From the NCBI GenBank assembly GCA_964583365.1, contig CAZOWS010000102.1:1-30818 (forward strand): a stretch of 30,818 nucleotides of DNA. Direction: 5' to 3'. Below, in pieces: positions 461 through 6,513 of the stretch (position 1 is the first letter of the stretch; the number at the start of each line of letters is the position of its first letter). The notes under the pieces are model-generated. The model was not told the DNA's origin and ran no database searches. It was given only the letters and a program-made list of their open reading frames with translations. Both the position numbers and the translations under genes were made by a program. Source of the stretch: an uncultured Actinomycetota bacterium. GTDB taxonomy: Bacteria; Auribacterota; Ancaeobacteria; Ancaeobacterales; CAZGMX01.

Positions 461-502
461 ATAAAAAAAGGCTGGCAGCGACTCCGGAAGTCGCTCGCCA
501 GC
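461..502 (-). terminator. Intrinsic terminator after the HAMP-protein gene
   Basis: GC-rich stem GCTGGC-AGCGACT / AGTCGCT-C-GCCAGC followed on the minus strand by a T7 run, directly after the stop codon at 502-504. Confidence 0.75.
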
Positions 503-1032
503 TACCTCGTCTTGAAGTTTTTCAAGTCCTGGTTGAGACGCTCTATATAATCTGCCATCCGCGAAATTTCCTCGTCCTTGGCCATCTTTTTAAGGTTGTT
601 GATCGCGTCTTCCAATTGTTCAATAATCCGCATATCGTTCTTGCGCTCCTTCTCCAGGAGTATCACCATTTCGTTATAGGAGTCCTGCACATCCTTAAAT
701 TGGTCATGCTGCCGAAATCTGATTTGACGCGGTGAAGACCCCTCGGCAATGCTGGCCAGATAGTTTTTTAGCCTATGCATGGGTCCGGCTGCGCGATGAG
801 AAAGGATAAAGGCAAGAACAGCTTGGAATAAAAAACCCAACCCCATTGCGATAGAAACTTTTATAAAGATTGATTCCGAAGTTACTTGCAAATTATTATT
901 TCTATCCAGATAAAAGATGCCGGCTACGAATATAAAAGTGATAAGAGCTTGGAACAGCACAAGCCTAATCGCATGTATCTGGAACTCCTTGTTCACCAGA
1001 TACCTTCCGCGTATATTGTACGTTTTGCTCAT
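502..1032 (-). CDS. Small membrane protein: 2 TM helices + HAMP domain + coiled coil, no output domain
   Basis: Two hydrophobic segments, then the HAMP-like SHRAAGPMHRL...IRFRQHDQFKDVQDSYNEM and a charged helical tail. ATG at 1032 preferred over TTG at 1041. Confidence 0.75.
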   Translation of the reverse strand: MSKTYNIRGRYLVNKEFQIHAIRLVLFQALITFIFVAGIFYLDRNNNLQVTSESIFIKVSIAMGLGFLFQAVLAFILSHRAAGPMHRLKNYLASIAEGSSPRQIRFRQHDQFKDVQDSYNEMVILLEKERKNDMRIIEQLEDAINNLKKMAKDEEISRMADYIERLNQDLKNFKTR

Positions 1033-1053
1033 CTTACTCAAATCTCCGACACT

Positions 1054-1082
1054 ACTATATCCTCAATTTTTCCCCTTGTCAA
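1054..1082 (-). promoter_or_regulatory. sigma70 promoter for the HAMP gene
   Basis: TTGACA (1082-1077), 17 nt, TATAGT (1059-1054). Confidence 0.7.
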
Positions 1083-1103
1083 GGCCCTAAGGGTTGCTAT
1101 AAT
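1076..1103 (+). promoter_or_regulatory. sigma70 promoter for the MNIO/bufferin operon
   Basis: TTGTCA (1076-1081), 16 nt, extended TG-c-TATAAT (1098-1103). Confidence 0.7.
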
Positions 1104-1160
1104 CCCGCCTCGAGTTTTAAAAACTCGCTGTACTCACAACACAAAAAGGAGAGTGCATAA

Positions 1161-1394
1161 GTGAAAAAGAATAAAATCATTTTGGCAGCCGTGGCCGGTT
1201 TGATGACTGGCTTGGTTGGTGTTTCTATTCCGGGTCATAATTCGCTCACCACAGTGCAATCTGCTGATGCCGCTGATACAGCCGTTGCGCCTCATGCCTG
1301 CAAAGGTGCCAATCAGTGCAAAGGTACCAATGAGTGCAAGGGTACCAATGTTTGCAAGGGTACTTGTGGTTGTGCAACAGATGGTAGCAAGTAA
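1161..1394 (+). CDS. Cys-rich secreted RiPP precursor, bufferin (BufA2)/oxazolin-like metallophore
   Basis: GTG start with AGGAG RBS; Sec-type signal ending ...VQSADA; core HACKGANQCKGTNECKGTNVCKGTCGC (6 Cys); directly upstream of DUF692-DUF2063-DoxX. Confidence 0.85.
   Translation: MKKNKIILAAVAGLMTGLVGVSIPGHNSLTTVQSADAADTAVAPHACKGANQCKGTNECKGTNVCKGTCGCATDGSK
1299..1370 (+). repeat. In-frame 18-bp tandem repeat x4 encoding CKGxNx
   Basis: tgcaaaggtgccaatcag / tgcaaaggtaccaatgag / tgcaagggtaccaatgtt / tgcaagggtacttgtggt. Confidence 0.9.
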
Positions 1395-1410
1395 CATTTA
1401 AGTTAACCTT

Positions 1411-1459
1411 AGAGGCCAAGCGTGCGGCTCAGGCCGGCGTTTGGCCTCTTTGTGTTTTC
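1411..1459 (+). terminator. Hairpin/partial terminator between precursor and MNIO genes
   Basis: Stem AGAGGCCAAGCG / CGTTTGGCCTCT plus inner CGGC/GCCG, followed by TTGTGTTTT. Confidence 0.6.
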
Positions 1460-1473
1460 ACTGCTTTAGTTCC

Positions 1474-2340
1474 ATGAATACCCACCCCCGAGTGCAAAAC
1501 AAAGTATTTGATGTGCCTAATCTGGGTATCGGATTGGGGCTTCGAATCAATCATTATAAGGAAATCCTAAAGACCAAGCCGGAAGTCGGCTGGTTTGAAA
1601 TTATCTCTGAAAACTTCATGGTGGAGGCAGGAAGACCTCTTTTCTATTTGGAGCAATTTCTTGAGCATTACCCGATCATCCAGCATGGTGTTGCGCTTTC
1701 CATCGGCAGCGCTGACCCTCTCGATTTTGACTATCTAAAAAAGCTGAAACGCCTTTCGGAAAGAACTAAAACACCCTGGTTTTCAGATCATCTTTGCTGG
1801 TGCACCCACAATGGGCACAACATGCACGACTTGCTGCCGCTGCCCTACACGGAAATCACCGCGCGGCGAGTTGCGGAAAAAGCTCGTGTTGTGCAGGATT
1901 TTATTGGAAAACCGTTTCTTTTGGAGAATGTGTCCAGCTACGTGGGCTTTCAAAGTTCGCAAATGGAAGAATGGGAGTTTTTGAGCCTTGTCGCCGAGAC
2001 GGCCGATTGCGGCATTTTGCTGGACGTGAACAACATCTATGTCTCCGCCCGCAATCACGGCTTCGATCCAATGGACTATTTAAAGGGGATACCAGCCAAA
2101 CGGGTGCTGCAAATTCACGTTGCCGGGCACTCCGACATGGGCAAATACATTTTGGACACGCATGACCATACCGTGCGGGACGAAGTGTGGGATCTCTACG
2201 CGAAGGCCTGCGAGCTGGTCGGCGACGTCTCCATGATGCTGGAACGCGATGACCACATACCTCCTTTCAAGGAAGTGTACGAAGAGGTTCTCAAGGCAAA
2301 GCAATACCAGAAGGCGCTGCATGCCACCAACGTCGCATAA
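1474..2340 (+). CDS. Multinuclear non-heme iron oxidative enzyme (DUF692/MNIO, BufB/MbnB family)
   Basis: Motifs GLGLR, FEIISENF, HGVALSIG, SDHLCW, HDLLPLP, LENVSSY, LLDVNNIYV, QIHVAGH, LDTHD, LERD. ATG at 1474 preferred over TTG at 1441. Confidence 0.95.
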   Translation: MNTHPRVQNKVFDVPNLGIGLGLRINHYKEILKTKPEVGWFEIISENFMVEAGRPLFYLEQFLEHYPIIQHGVALSIGSADPLDFDYLKKLKRLSERTKTPWFSDHLCWCTHNGHNMHDLLPLPYTEITARRVAEKARVVQDFIGKPFLLENVSSYVGFQSSQMEEWEFLSLVAETADCGILLDVNNIYVSARNHGFDPMDYLKGIPAKRVLQIHVAGHSDMGKYILDTHDHTVRDEVWDLYAKACELVGDVSMMLERDDHIPPFKEVYEEVLKAKQYQKALHATNVA

Positions 2341-3184
2341 AATTGTTCAGGTCTCGGACCTGACCGAACTTCAGGAATGGATGTGCGGGGCCATACGCAC
2401 ACCGATGTCCAAGCAAGCATCTATCACTCCAGACCCCGTGTACTATTTGACCCCCAATGCTCAACTCACTGCGCGTGAGCGCCTGGAGATTTATGCCGAT
2501 GATTATTGGAGCCGCTGCTTCAATATGCTGCATGATAATTTCCCGGGACTCGCGGAAATTTGGGGTCATGAGACATTTCATCGCTGGTCAGAACAATACC
2601 TGGTTCAATGTTCTTCTTCTTCCTTCACGTTGCGCGACCTCGGGAATAAATTTGAAAGTTTTATCTCATCGGAATATCACGGGCAAGACAGCGCCCTGGT
2701 CTTGGATATGCTGCGCTACGAATGGGCTAGAATCGAGGCATTTGATCGGCCCGTGTTGCCACCTTTTGATCCCGAAAAGTTGAGCGCGCAGGAAAGAGTA
2801 GATCTGGCTTCTTTGACTTTCGCATTGCAGCCGCATATCTCATTGCTGCAATTGGATTATCCTGTCTTTGAGGTAGTAGACAAATTGATTAGTCGCAAGA
2901 CCAAGAAAACCATACCCGTGCCCACGAAGGGTGAATATTTTACGGTAGTGTACCGCCACGATTTCATCGTGTATCACAAAGAAATTGACAAAGCCTTTTA
3001 CCTTCTCCTAACTCAGATACAAGGTGGAAAATCCCTCGCGGACGGTTGCGATGCGATATTACCGCTGCTGGACAAGGAACAAATCAACCGGCTAGAAAAA
3101 AAGGCCCGGACATGGTTTCAGCAATGCGTGGCATTGCAATGGCTGGGGGCACCGGTGAAATCCGGGGAATCCGGGGACATGTAA
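2321..3184 (+). CDS. MNIO partner protein (DUF2063, BufC/HvfC family)
   Basis: ERLEIYADDYWSR, FPGL, FTLRDLG, LRYEWA motifs; overlaps the DUF692 stop; start ATG 2321 in the ORF-track frame. Confidence 0.88.
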   Translation: MPPTSHKIVQVSDLTELQEWMCGAIRTPMSKQASITPDPVYYLTPNAQLTARERLEIYADDYWSRCFNMLHDNFPGLAEIWGHETFHRWSEQYLVQCSSSSFTLRDLGNKFESFISSEYHGQDSALVLDMLRYEWARIEAFDRPVLPPFDPEKLSAQERVDLASLTFALQPHISLLQLDYPVFEVVDKLISRKTKKTIPVPTKGEYFTVVYRHDFIVYHKEIDKAFYLLLTQIQGGKSLADGCDAILPLLDKEQINRLEKKARTWFQQCVALQWLGAPVKSGESGDM

Positions 3185-3240
3185 CGAATTCGCTTTTGAA
3201 TTCGGTACGTGTCCCCGCATTCCCGTGTCCCCGCATTTCG
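3161..3240. repeat. GGGGACA...TGTCCCC palindromic element, copy A
   Basis: Arms GGGGACATGTAACGAATTC (3173-3191) / GAATTCGGTACGTGTCCCC (3198-3216), 17/19 match, loop GCTTTT; flanks TCCGGGGA and GTGTCCCCGCATT are each duplicated. Confidence 0.8.
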
Positions 3241-3260
3241 GGAAAGCTAGGAGCTTAACC

Positions 3261-3716
3261 ATGTTTCTTCATCGCACAATTAAACTCTTGTTGGATTGGG
3301 CCGAGCGACTGCAATGGCTACCACCTCTTTTGACGCGGCTTTCCATCGGATATATGTTTTATATCACCGGGAAGGGAAAGCTGCTGCATTTAGACAGCAC
3401 CACCCAATTCTTCGCCAAGCTGGGGATTCCATTTCCCCACATCAACGCGATCATGGCGGCTTCCACGGAATGCTTTGGCGGCTTACTCATCATGGTTGGA
3501 TTATGCACGCGCTTGGCATCCATTCCTCTGGCATTCGTGATGGTGATTGCCATCGCCACGGCCCAGATGGGCCAAGTGCACAGTTTGGGTGATTTCGTAG
3601 GGCTTTCGGAAGTCGCGTACATGTTGATTTTCGTCTGGCTTGCCATCGCAGGGCCCGGCAAGGTAAGTCTGGATCATTGGCTGCGCAAATGTTTCCCCGG
3701 CCCTTCCAAATTATAA
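3261..3716 (+). CDS. DoxX family membrane protein (BufD-like)
   Basis: LLTRLSIGYMFYITGKGKL, ECFGGLLIMVGLCTR, GPGKVSLD motifs; AGGAG RBS before ATG 3261. Confidence 0.92.
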   Translation: MFLHRTIKLLLDWAERLQWLPPLLTRLSIGYMFYITGKGKLLHLDSTTQFFAKLGIPFPHINAIMAASTECFGGLLIMVGLCTRLASIPLAFVMVIAIATAQMGQVHSLGDFVGLSEVAYMLIFVWLAIAGPGKVSLDHWLRKCFPGPSKL

Positions 3717-5563
3717 GTTTTTTTTTGCTTCTGCTACTCGGACCTAACCTTGCCACGGTTCGAGCCGAAGAAGCTGTCTCCGTAGCTTGGAAATCCTGGT
3801 CCCAGGAAACCTTTGATGAAGCCAAAGCCAGCGAGAAACTCATTCTGCTGGACGTCAGCGCTGCGTGGTGTCATTGGTGCCATGTCATGGAAGAAACCAC
3901 GTACCGTGATCCCGCGATCGTGTCGCTCATCGAAAAATATTTTATTCCCATCAAAGTGGACGTGGATGCCCGGCCCGACATCGCCGCGCGCTATGGCTCC
4001 ATAGGCTGGCCGGCCACGGCCTTTTTTTCGCCCGACGCCAATCCGCTGCGTGAAGTGGGCGCCTACGTGGACCCGCAGGCCTTTGGGAAAATCTTAAATG
4101 AACTTCTAAAAAATCGTTCTGGCTCGCCGAAAACAATAGAGACATCTGCTGCAAAGAAATCTCTATCCATCTCCAGCTCTCGTAACTCCCTCTCCCTCCG
4201 AGAAGGAGAGGGCCGGGGTGAGGGTGCCATTGAAACCATGAACACCTGGGCCGAGAAAGAGCTGCTTAGCTATTACGATACGAAACTAGGCGGCTGGGGA
4301 AAGCGACAAAAGGCCCCCGTGGCCGATGCGGTCGAACACGCGTTTTGGAAATATTATTTAACGCGAGATGCTGTCTCGGCAAAGCGCGCGTTCTCTAGCC
4401 TGCTCTCCCAAAGACCTTTATTGGACCCGGTTTGGGGAGGCATGTATCAATATTCGGATGGCGGCGTGTGGGGCAGGCCGCATTTTGAGAAAATCATGAC
4501 CGTGCAGGCAGGCGCTCTGTCCAATTATGCTCAAGCGTATTGGTCCAGCGGCGACAAACGCTTCCTGTCCCTAACGCGCATGATGCTTTCCTACCTGGAT
4601 AATTTTCTGTCATCTCCGGATGGGTATTTTTTTACGAGCCAGGACGCGGATTTAAAATCCTTGGACGGTAACGACTACTTTTGCCTGTCCGACCAAGAAC
4701 GCCGCGCGTGGGGATTGCCGAGCGTGGACAGAAATGTCTATGCGCGCGAAAACGGTCTTGCCATTTCTGCTTTTTGTGAGGCTTTTGCTGCAACAGAAGA
4801 TGAAGCCATAAGGCAAAAAGCTCTGACCGCGGCGAATCACATTCTAAGCACGCATGGCAAACCCGGCGGAGGATTTTTTCATGCTGCCGGCCCAGCGGAT
4901 AAAACGCTGTATTTGGCGGACAATGCTGTTTTCGGGAAAGCCTTGCTGGATTGTTTTGCGATCAGCGGGCAGGCGCGCTATCTCTACAAGGCCGTCGAGA
5001 CCGGCGATGTCATGCTCCAAGAGTTTGCTTCTCCCGATGGGTTTGGACTCTACGCGCATTCCGTTGATCCCAAAGCCGTTGGCTTTTTTGCCGACCGCCA
5101 AAAACCATTCGAAGAAAACGCGCTCGCCGCACGGTTTTTGTTGCGACTACACGGATACACGGGGAAGGCAAAATACCGAGATGCGGCAAAAAACATATTG
5201 ATGTATTTGAGCGATGAAGCGCGACTAAAAGATCAAGGCAGATTCCTCGGCAATTACCTCCTGGCAACCGAAGAGTTCTTGCACGAGCCATTGCATCTCT
5301 TGGTCATCGGCGCAAAAACCGACGCGAGAGCAATTGCATTGCACGAAAGCGCATGGAAATATTATGCGCCGTATAAAATTTTGGATTGGCAAGATCCCAA
5401 GGAAAATCCGGATATCGCGAAAAACTACCCAATCTTCAACCACCCGGTCCTTTTTATCTGCTCGACCGGCCGCTGTTCCCCACCCATCCAGAACCCAAAA
5501 AATGTTTCCAAAGCCATAAGCGATTTCAAAAATGCGGAAATCCAGAGACATAACCCCATCTAG
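3689..5563 (+). CDS. Thioredoxin-domain protein (SSP411/YyaL, DUF255 + alpha/alpha toroid) with N-terminal signal peptide
   Basis: WKSWSQETF, AAWCHWCHVME, KVDVDARPD, GWP, LLDPVWGG, PHFEK motifs; hydrophobic N-terminus ending ATVRA-EE. Confidence 0.88.
   Translation: MFPRPFQIISFFLLLLLGPNLATVRAEEAVSVAWKSWSQETFDEAKASEKLILLDVSAAWCHWCHVMEETTYRDPAIVSLIEKYFIPIKVDVDARPDIAARYGSIGWPATAFFSPDANPLREVGAYVDPQAFGKILNELLKNRSGSPKTIETSAAKKSLSISSSRNSLSLREGEGRGEGAIETMNTWAEKELLSYYDTKLGGWGKRQKAPVADAVEHAFWKYYLTRDAVSAKRAFSSLLSQRPLLDPVWGGMYQYSDGGVWGRPHFEKIMTVQAGALSNYAQAYWSSGDKRFLSLTRMMLSYLDNFLSSPDGYFFTSQDADLKSLDGNDYFCLSDQERRAWGLPSVDRNVYARENGLAISAFCEAFAATEDEAIRQKALTAANHILSTHGKPGGGFFHAAGPADKTLYLADNAVFGKALLDCFAISGQARYLYKAVETGDVMLQEFASPDGFGLYAHSVDPKAVGFFADRQKPFEENALAARFLLRLHGYTGKAKYRDAAKNILMYLSDEARLKDQGRFLGNYLLATEEFLHEPLHLLVIGAKTDARAIALHESAWKYYAPYKILDWQDPKENPDIAKNYPIFNHPVLFICSTGRCSPPIQNPKNVSKAISDFKNAEIQRHNPI
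4186..4224. repeat. CCCTCTCC...GGAGAGGG..GGGGTGAGGG palindromic element inside the CDS
   Basis: Stem CCCTCTCC (4188-4195) / GGAGAGGG (4205-4212) followed by CCGGGGTGAGGG; translates in frame as SLSLREGEGRGEG. Confidence 0.7.
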
Positions 5564-5649
5564 CCTTTCACGCGATTGCGAAAATTCGGAAATCCGGGGA
5601 CATAACCCCATTTAGCTTTTCAAATGGGGATTGTGTCCCCGCATTTCCG
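5535..5649. repeat. GGGGACA...TGTCCCC palindromic element, copy B, with a degenerate direct duplicate of the left arm
   Basis: Arms GGGGACATAACCCCATTT (5597-5614) / AAATGGGGATTGTGTCCCC (5622-5640), loop contains GCTTTT; 5535-5566 repeats 5587-5618; flanks AAATCCGGGGA and GTGTCCCCGCATTTC match copy A. Confidence 0.85.
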
Positions 5650-6513
5650 TGAAATCTCGATCATCTTAATAAACCCAAGCTCCTCCATCAAAGGCATCGC
5701 AAGCCCTTTGTCATACCCCTTATACGCCAAAGTTTTCAAACTCTCCCGCATAGGCGCCTCCACGCTAAACGTCGCCAACCGCGTCGACAGTTGCGCCATT
5801 CTCTTACCCTCTCTGAGCTTTCCAGCAAGCGTCCCAGCACCCCGCAGTTTCATGTGCCCCACACGATCAAGATTCGCATACAAATTCTCCATCGTCTGAA
5901 ATTCCTTCAACAACGCAACGGCCGTTTTATTGCCCACGCCAGAAACGCCCGGAATATTATCCGCGCTGTCCCCCGCCAAACCTAAAAAATCGGGAATTTG
6001 ATCGGGGCGCAATCCCATTTCAACTTCCACGGCTTTTTCATTCAGCCACTTGTGTTTGGCCACGTTGTAATAACGTGTCCTCGCGTCCACCAATTGCAAT
6101 AAATCCTTATCGCCGGAAACAATCACAAACGCGCAATTTTCTTTTGATAATTTGTGGCGCGCGGTGGCAATCAAGTCATCGGCTTCGTAGCGATGATCGG
6201 CCAAGACACGGCATCCCAGCGCCTGTGCCATGCGTTGGCAATACTTAAGTTGCGCCTCCAATTCCGGCGGAGGCAGAACGCGATTGGCTTTGTAATCGGG
6301 ATAAAAATCGTTGCGGAACGAGGTGGTCAAGCTCTCGTCGAAAGCCACCATGACATGCGACGGCTTCTCTTCGGCCAACAACTTGATTAAAAATCTAGCG
6401 AACCCGTAGACCGCATTAATATTAGCACCTCGAGGAGATCGAATCTCGGGCAGCGCAAAGTACGCGCGAAAAACATAGGGCAAGGCATCTATTAAAAAGA
6501 CGGTCTTTTTCAT
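5620..6513 (-). CDS. Stand-alone 5'-3' exonuclease / flap endonuclease (PolI N-terminal-like, ExoIX/FEN family)
   Basis: LIDALPYVFRAYF, YKANR, YEADDLIAT, SGDKDLLQL, GDSADNIPGVSGVGNKTA; no polymerase domain. True start probably ATG 6513 (MKKTVFLID); the ORF-track extension runs through repeats. Confidence 0.92.
   Translation of the reverse strand: MKKTVFLIDALPYVFRAYFALPEIRSPRGANINAVYGFARFLIKLLAEEKPSHVMVAFDESLTTSFRNDFYPDYKANRVLPPPELEAQLKYCQRMAQALGCRVLADHRYEADDLIATARHKLSKENCAFVIVSGDKDLLQLVDARTRYYNVAKHKWLNEKAVEVEMGLRPDQIPDFLGLAGDSADNIPGVSGVGNKTAVALLKEFQTMENLYANLDRVGHMKLRGAGTLAGKLREGKRMAQLSTRLATFSVEAPMRESLKTLAYKGYDKGLAMPLMEELGFIKMIEISRKCGDTIPI

Follow-up and report, generated by a model that had tools for sequence, protein, structure and literature searches.

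The locus considered here raises a simple question. Does a small gene for an exported peptide whose cysteines appear to recur every six residues, placed directly in front of genes for an MNIO (DUF692) and a DUF2063 protein, stand for a precursor class of its own, or does it belong to the bufferins? The locus lies in a 30,818-nucleotide (nt) stretch of DNA from an uncultured bacterium (contig CAZOWS010000102.1), the whole of which is hereafter called the window. We conclude that it fits the bufferin/captophorin family, a very widespread one, as an ordinary member and that its sole special feature is a private deletion of eight residues in the precursor. By analogy with characterized systems the locus is very probably a five-gene operon of the "Cys-Lys" (BufA2-like) type, in which cysteines of the precursor would be converted to 5-thiooxazoles by BufB and BufC and the product exported via the Sec pathway to buffer copper in the periplasm.

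The five-gene operon and its precursor

The genes form one compact operon on the plus strand which, promoter included, extends from 1076 to 5563. Its five genes and the repeat within the first of them are as follows.

1161..1394, plus strand: bufA-like precursor gene; 77 amino acids, GTG start with AAGGAG 10 nt upstream, Sec-type signal peptide followed by a six-cysteine core ending in CATDGSK
1299..1363, plus strand: 18-bp tandem repeat coding for the CKGxNx units; a single array in Tandem Repeats Finder (3.6 copies, 89% matches, score 88)
1474..2340, plus strand: bufB, MNIO (DUF692) maturase with an ERDD motif; 350.3 bits against NF050167 BufB (cut-off 310) and 360.6 bits against PF05114
2321..3184, plus strand: bufC, DUF2063 partner protein (PME1 type); 56.8 bits against PF09836 (cut-off 27.2), overlapping the bufB stop by 20 nt
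3261..3716, plus strand: bufD, DoxX membrane protein of the HvfX family; 73 bits against PF07681 and 84.4 bits against NF050144 (cut-off 80)
3689..5563, plus strand: exported protein of the DUF255/Thioredox_DsbH type that has a WCHWC motif and, C-terminally, a helical-toroid-like part; 101.5 bits against PF03190 and 96 bits against PDB entry 7TKV

A first-pass annotation of this DNA had proposed a bufferin-like MNIO/DUF2063/DoxX cluster for a peptide of ribosomal origin that is modified after translation (RiPP), with a Sec-type, cysteine-rich precursor. This proposal is borne out by matches above cut-off to the BufB, DUF2063 and DoxX/HvfX models. The annotation had let the cluster run from 1161 to 3716; the parts it named do lie there, but the operon continues with a fifth gene, the DUF255 gene at 3689–5563, which shares 28 nt with the 3′ end of doxX.

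The signal peptide of the precursor (MKKNKIILAAVAGLMTGLVGVSIPGHNSLTTVQSADAADTAVAPHACKGANQCKGTNECKGTNVCKGTCGCATDGSK), read by eye, consists of an MKKNK n-region, a hydrophobic run of 18 residues and an A-x-A site, and the core is HAC-KGANQ-C-KGTNE-C-KGTNV-C-KGTCGC-ATDGSK. The 18-bp tandem repeat noticed earlier was recovered by Tandem Repeats Finder with a period of 18. Of the description of the peptide as a signal peptide plus four CKGxNx units ending in CGC, the signal peptide and the CGC are right; there are three exact units, however, and the fourth reads CKGTCG. Likewise, six cysteines are indeed present, but they span 25 residues instead of the claimed 27, and their spacing is 6,6,6,4,2 instead of a strict period of six. 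The core contains four CKG dyads and hence multiple Cys-Lys dyads, as in the Cys-Lys captophorin group. No match to DUF2282 (BufA1) was obtained in the precursor by Pfam scan, which returned only a sub-threshold match to Scytovirin, and the precursor has no EGKCG motif of the oxazolin/HvfA type.

The maturase agrees with the peptide in type. Aligned by phmmer, MLERDDHIPPF of the window MNIO corresponds to LLERDFNFPPF of PDB entry 3BWW, which stems from a Lys-Cys type locus of Histophilus somni. Asp is present at the E[RW]D-D position in all 74 scored MNIOs that adjoin precursors with the same terminus (ATDGSK type). MNIOs of the Cys-Lys group were reported to have Asp at the position that Phe takes in Lys-Cys enzymes, and this Asp was modeled against the substrate lysine (PMC13097082). 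The Asp of the window MNIO fits this published signature, its equivalence to BufB2 Asp251 (FonB Phe250) being taken from the description in that paper and not from an alignment with BufB2. Against the HvfB model NF003818 the window MNIO reaches 263.9 bits, below the cut-off of 360.

The source genome contains one MNIO gene and one such precursor gene, and the two are adjacent. In all 80 genome loci where an MNIO was matched, as well as in seven loci from metagenomes, a small precursor open reading frame (ORF) stands directly before the MNIO gene. The order bufA-B-C-D is common to 73–81 of the 81 related loci; the published gene order is strictly bufABC (PMC12452194).

Conversion of cysteine to 5-thiooxazole in Caulobacter requires both BufB and BufC and nothing beyond these two; DoxX as well as the signal peptide can be dispensed with as far as the modification is concerned. 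Buf2 has six cysteines, of which I and VI remain unmodified and the four central ones are found at −4 Da, and both Caulobacter clusters protect against copper (PMC11626156). A survey distinguished Buf1 (DUF2282), Buf2 (Buf_6/12Cys) and Buf_EGKCG/oxazolin, along with hundreds of other small precursors with a signal peptide and 1–18 cysteines (PMC12452194). More than 24,000 MNIO-PME1 loci were catalogued in the captophorin paper, the "Cys-Lys" repeat group of which comprises 1,172 + 358 biosynthetic gene clusters with NACKG among the common 5-mers of the class (PMC13097082). The number of repeats is known to vary in EGKCG precursors (PMC12538549).

Taking chemistry, export and copper function from the work on Caulobacter, Haemophilus and Fontimonas, we propose the following model for the window system. 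A σ70-type promoter would drive the precursor gene, and a hairpin terminator or attenuator behind that gene would ensure that more precursor is made than enzyme. Cysteines of the core would be oxidized to 5-thiooxazoles in the cytoplasm by the MNIO BufB together with its DUF2063 partner BufC, with one four-electron reaction (−4 Da) per cysteine. The product would then be exported by means of its Sec signal peptide, which would be cleaved off, and in the periplasm the peptide would bind copper and buffer copper stress. DoxX and the exported, thioredoxin-like DUF255 protein would have accessory functions, among which may be control over whether the peptide is in its thiol or disulfide state.

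The precursor family and the 24-nt deletion

A word-indexed protein search yielded nine relatives of the precursor, all of the form MKKNKI…HACKG…CATDGSK and 82–97 amino acids long. This search much understated the family, the size of which was corrected by a genome scan, covering one genome per prokaryote species and using two conserved peptide patterns, and by an exhaustive phmmer search. The genome scan revealed confirmed precursor relatives in at least 562 species-level genomes, which belong to Acidobacteriota, Verrucomicrobiota, Methylomirabilota, Eremiobacterota, Binatia and others. At E ≤ 1e-3 the phmmer search, run on 1.84 billion cluster representatives, produced 90 matches with 3 to 15 cysteines, six being the most frequent number (33 of 90). 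Among these matches are cores from the same lineage as the window precursor with 5, 7 and 8 cysteines (P0016, P0017 and P0018) and a lipoprotein with four cysteines at strict hexad spacing (P0033). The relatives from the protein searches carry neither a Pfam domain nor a source name. The precursor was not found in the genomes of any of 40 GTDB relatives.

The usual core of this subfamily is HACKGxNSCKGxGGC-x6-CKGKNSCKGKGGCATDGSK. In the best 80 relatives the near-invariant sequence is KHACKGxNSCKGxGGCKxxDNGCKGKNSCKGKGGCATDGSK, and 77 of these 80 have their cysteines spaced 6,6,7,6,6. Other members depart from this pattern in the number of units: L123 has four cysteines and the ATDGSK end, L091 has four CKGKNS units and L121 has six CKGxNS units. 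At the far end are two long Cys-Lys precursors from metagenomes, each with a signal peptide and each encoded directly upstream of an MNIO gene (L096, 4907–5749, and L099, 658–1569, both on the minus strand). They contain 25 and 27 cysteines, respectively, in HxCKGxNxCKGxGGCKT modules with a spacing of 6,6,7, and that of L099 ends in (CKGKDA)x6. When metagenomes were scanned for CKGxNxCKGxNxCKG, 37 stretches were obtained; about 20 of them are small ORFs with a signal peptide, and seven of these have an MNIO gene immediately downstream.

How does this subfamily relate to BufA2? Close relatives of the window precursor score 37–45 bits against the BufA2 model NF050166 and stay below its cut-off of 60. 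Those sequences from metagenomes that possess a GF/W-x-E…C segment at the C-terminus exceed it, at 67–106 bits; these have five cysteines, strict C-x5-C spacing and CKGxNx units. When the profile of the ATDGSK subfamily was compared with that of the NF050166-passing sequences by hhalign, a probability of 98.8% and an E value of 6.5e-17 were obtained over 69 aligned columns. By this profile comparison the ATDGSK subfamily is homologous to BufA2, as judged against the NF050166-passing sequences and not against Caulobacter BufA2 itself; in a six-frame search of the Caulobacter vibrioides genome, used as a control, NF050166 gave no match.

Hexad periodicity and a variable number of units are, on the evidence of these alignments, norms of the family and not distinctive of the window locus. 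The existence of a new hexapeptide-repeat precursor class was considered and rejected, relatives commonly having C-x5-C spacing and CKGxNx units in varying copy number. The first-pass annotation had seen in the compact core a variant whose repeat number might be tunable and whose metal density would be high. This view could not be upheld: the core bears the mark of a 24-nt deletion and not of an expansion, its six cysteines are the usual number, and the Cys-Lys group has been described before (PMC13097082). When repeat counts are compared in relatives, MNIO-adjacent precursors are seen to range from 2 units to about 25 cysteines, so the variability is not special. Nor does the spacing separate the peptide from characterized BufA2 at the level of the family, C-x5-C being a hallmark of the NF050166-passing sequences, which stood in for the Caulobacter BufA2 sequence in this comparison.

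In protein alignments with its relatives, the window precursor is devoid of eight residues, GGC-x-x-E-G-K, which correspond to Cys III and the linker between the two modules. In the DNA alignment this appears as a clean, in-frame gap of 24 nt just after position 1322 with respect to close relatives and of 21 nt with respect to P0007. The missing segment is flanked by AAGG on both edges in the relatives, which fits a deletion by microhomology or slippage. A GGT-to-TGT (G-to-T) change in the last GG adds a cysteine, yields the ending CKGTCGC and brings the cysteine count back to six; the same ending is present in P0007 and P0017. The closest relative, L125, has an MNIO that is 85% identical to that of the window and yet a precursor of the long form, which argues for a recent deletion private to the window lineage. 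As read from these alignments, the apparent strict periodicity of the window core is the product of this private 24-nt deletion and not of repeat expansion.

A separate observation concerns the lineage defined by the MKKNKI signal peptide. Its members P0016, P0017, P0018 and P0007 have arrived at 5, 7, 8 and 8 cysteines, respectively, via differing insertions or deletions (indels) and Gly-to-Cys changes. Evolution of the core is rapid in this lineage, in contrast to that of the HACKG start and the signal peptide, both of which are fixed.

Predicted regulatory elements and the DUF255 gene

Four further elements were located in the operon outside the coding repeat.

1076..1103, plus strand: σ70-type promoter predicted by consensus match; TTGTCA, 16 nt, TG-n-TATAAT, with 11 of 12 consensus matches and an extended −10 box
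1111..1127, no strand assigned: perfect palindrome CGAGTTTT-A-AAAACTCG, just past the −10 box, where transcription is predicted to begin
1411..1458, plus strand: GC-rich, terminator-like hairpin and a U-rich tail behind it, in the bufA-bufB spacer; −34.2 kcal/mol, z = −4.4
3165..3237, no strand assigned: palindromic repeat element with 27-nt arms (89% complementary) and a 14-nt direct repeat (CGTGTCCCCGCATT, two copies), covering the 3′ end and stop of bufC and the bufC-doxX spacer

Conserved between the window and its relatives L125, L124 and L003 are the two promoter boxes (−35 and −10), the ribosome-binding site and the palindrome. The palindrome at 1111–1127 is a candidate for an operator recognized by some regulator or, alternatively, for a stem at the 5′ end of the mRNA. 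It is the sole exact copy in the 2.45-Mb genome, which contains four sites with two mismatches, three of them within ORFs. A regulon built on this palindrome found no support, as the exact site is single and a control with the reversed pattern itself gave two sites.

The hairpin between bufA and bufB folds better than chance, with none of 200 shuffled sequences folding equally well, and an alternative bufB start (TTG at 1441) falls within it. A hairpin is kept at this position, with a different sequence, in L001, L003, L124, L125, L068 and L011 and thereby reaches loci from Verrucomicrobiota and Acidobacteriota. Conservation in position and not in sequence fits an attenuator that sets the ratio of precursor to enzymes, and the element at 1411–1458 is probably of that kind. 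With regard to the palindromic repeat element at the end of bufC, the C-terminus of BufC (…GAPVKSGESGDM) is unlike those of L001 and L003 over its last ~12 residues.

Divergent from the precursor promoter lies a gene for a 179-amino-acid membrane protein with weak HAMP-like matches (502–1041, minus strand). Proteins with 45–49% identity to it are encoded at the equivalent place in L001, L003 and L124; it is absent from L125. Synteny of the window with L001, L003, L124 and L125 (acyl carrier protein, 179-amino-acid HAMP-like protein, then the divergent buf operon) points to vertical inheritance within a small lineage. The other neighbors of the buf operon in the window are ilvD, acnA, glgB and a suf operon.

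The fifth gene recurs in the family. A DUF255 homolog is co-directional with the buf genes and at most 2.3 kb away from them in 14 of the 81 related loci, which fall into three lineages. The first comprises the window and L001–L003, with the gene directly 3′ of doxX in L001 (10719–12389) and L003 (10480–12264). Seven Verrucomicrobiota loci make up the second, the gene directly following doxX in L068 (8605–10341) and L080 (8808–10532). In the three Acidobacteriota loci it lies directly upstream of the precursor gene (L011, L017 and L057, at about 3900–5650). Among the papers searched, none joins an MNIO, DoxX and a thioredoxin.

Judged from its domain and its recurrence, the DUF255 protein may be an accessory periplasmic redox partner, which we regard as a modest lead. 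One might go further and speculate that ATDGSK-type bufferins constitute a functionally distinct, unannotated subclass. In such a subclass the DoxX-coupled DUF255/DsbH-like protein would act as dedicated periplasmic redox partner of the thiooxazole peptide, the CATDGSK tail would serve as recognition element, and the 25-residue, four-CKG core of the window would be a naturally minimized substrate that is still modified at multiple sites. We consider this extended proposal doubtful. We class the recurring DUF255 gene, like the palindrome conserved at the promoter, as a minor lead.

Competing explanations and comparison with known systems

Several points weigh against the assignment of the window locus to a copper-buffering Cys-Lys operon. 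The precursor reaches 22.6 bits (E 8.9e-5) against the BufA2 model NF050166, or 30.7 bits in a six-frame search, and thus remains under the 60-bit cut-off. It ends in CKGTCGCATDGSK and is devoid of the C-terminal helix, the GF/W-x-E…C segment and the distal sixth cysteine of the NF050166-passing sequences. AlphaFold2, supplied with a 65-sequence alignment, gave no usable fold for it (mean predicted local distance difference test score, pLDDT, of 49; predicted template modeling score, pTM, of 0.14). In BufC, the C-terminal domain resembling a RiPP recognition element matches NGO1945_C weakly (21.9 bits, cut-off 27), and the HvfC model NF050145 gives 62.4 bits (cut-off 142). The 30-kb window contains no copper-related gene and no regulator of the SigF/NrsF type, so that copper is an assumed cognate metal. 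Furthermore, the deletion allele is known from a single contig of a metagenome-assembled genome (MAG), and the chemistry proposed for the window peptide, as for ATDGSK-type peptides in general, is that suggested by homology.

The alternative that survives best, although in our judgment an improbable one, is that the peptide does carry thiooxazoles and serves a purpose other than copper buffering. Its ligand might be a thiophilic metal other than copper (Hg, Au, Ag, Zn or Cd), or it might take part in periplasmic redox or oxidative-stress defense, in which DoxX and the DUF255 protein would be the core redox partners. The lack of a copper gene or copper-type regulator nearby would be compatible with this explanation, as would a thioredoxin-fold gene whose translation is coupled to that of doxX and which occurs repeatedly in the family (14 of 81 loci). 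In addition, fusions with MerC, a connection with oxidative stress and, in Microbulbifer, a cluster not induced by copper are on record (PMC12452194, PMC13097082, PMC12538549). However, every characterized member of the MNIO-DUF2063 class binds copper, the Caulobacter clusters are copper-protective (PMC11626156), and nothing at this locus points to another specific metal.

Still less probable is that the shortened precursor represents a decaying or artefactual allele, produced by assembly collapse or by a recent deleterious deletion and specifying a peptide that is poorly modified or non-functional. The contig is part of a fragmented 2.45-Mb MAG (372 contigs, 87% complete, 4% contamination), the exact architecture of the window core was encountered in no other sequence in the protein searches, and L125, the closest relative by its MNIO (85% identity), has retained the long form. 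By contrast, the reading frame is kept precisely across the gap, the length of which is less than that of a read, and the flanking codons have diverged as well: Thr codons are present in both adjoining units, and the GGT-to-TGT change has given rise to CKGTCGC, an ending shared with P0007 and P0017. Six cysteines are kept, HACKG and CATDGSK are intact, and the four genes downstream of the precursor are all open and pass their models. Indels in the core appear to be tolerated given that sisters of the same lineage carry other ones (5, 7 or 8 cysteines).

A third explanation, in which the small ORF encodes an unmodified, metallothionein-like cysteine-rich periplasmic peptide and the adjacent MNIO acts on another substrate, would accommodate the score below the curated BufA2 cut-off and the lack of an AlphaFold2 fold, yet it is hardly credible in view of the sole MNIO and the sole such precursor of the genome standing side by side, the placement of the precursor ORF directly before the MNIO gene in 80 of 80 MNIO-bearing genome loci and seven metagenome loci, and the MNIO Asp that matches the Cys-Lys dyads of the peptide.

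If the locus is a bufferin operon of the Cys-Lys type, as we prefer to read it, it belongs to a class that is already known and carries little weight for discovery. Its short, regular core with four CKG dyads may be of use as a convenient natural minimal substrate for the study of BufB2-type (Cys-Lys) specificity, which, unlike the Lys-Cys type, has not been reconstituted in vitro. The presence of the subfamily in at least 562 species below the NCBIfam cut-off for BufA2 suggests that the model or its cut-off could be widened, and the recurrent DUF255 gene offers a hint on the role of DoxX in buf operons.

Among the characterized systems, Bufferin 1 (BufA1, DUF2282) shares with the window locus the bufABCD logic, DoxX and Sec export; in Bufferin 1, two central cysteines are converted to thiooxazoles. 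It differs in that the window precursor has no DUF2282 match and that the Bufferin 1 precursor is not repeat-built. Moreover, Bufferin 1 operons are often linked to SigF/NrsF, which the window does not contain.

Oxazolin (HvfA), fontiphorin (FonA), gonophorin and bulbicupramide resemble the window system in their combination of an MNIO with DUF2063/PME1 and in their cysteine-rich precursors built from a variable number of repeats, and their 5-thiooxazole chemistry binds copper (PMC13097082, PMC12538549). Unlike these EGKCG or Lys-Cys captophorins, the window precursor has Cys-Lys dyads and the window MNIO has Asp where theirs have Phe and fails the HvfB model (263.9 against a required 360). 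FonBC, which is of the Lys-Cys type, failed to process an NACKG substrate (PMC13097082).

Bufferin 2 of Caulobacter vibrioides (BufA2/BufB2/BufC2; Buf_6/12Cys; Cys-Lys captophorins) is more similar. Common to both are a Sec-type precursor with six cysteines in Cys-Lys(-Gly) dyads at six-residue spacing, the placement of its gene directly upstream of those for the MNIO and the DUF2063 partner, an Asp following the catalytic Asp, and homology at the profile level. By contrast, the window precursor stays under the NF050166 cut-off, ends in CGCATDGSK instead of GF/W-x-E…C and has lost one cysteine-bearing module junction, and the operon includes DoxX and DUF255 genes, whereas the Caulobacter buf2 operon is devoid of doxX (PMC11626156).

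Within the ATDGSK subfamily (L005–L084; Acidobacteriota, Verrucomicrobiota and other soil bacteria), the window precursor is set apart by the 24-nt deletion and the Gly-to-Cys change, which turned two modules spaced 6,6,7,6,6 into a core spaced 6,6,6,4,2. The window locus shares with this subfamily the HACKG start, the CKGxNx units, the invariant CATDGSK end, the bufABCD order and an MNIO that is 54–60% identical.

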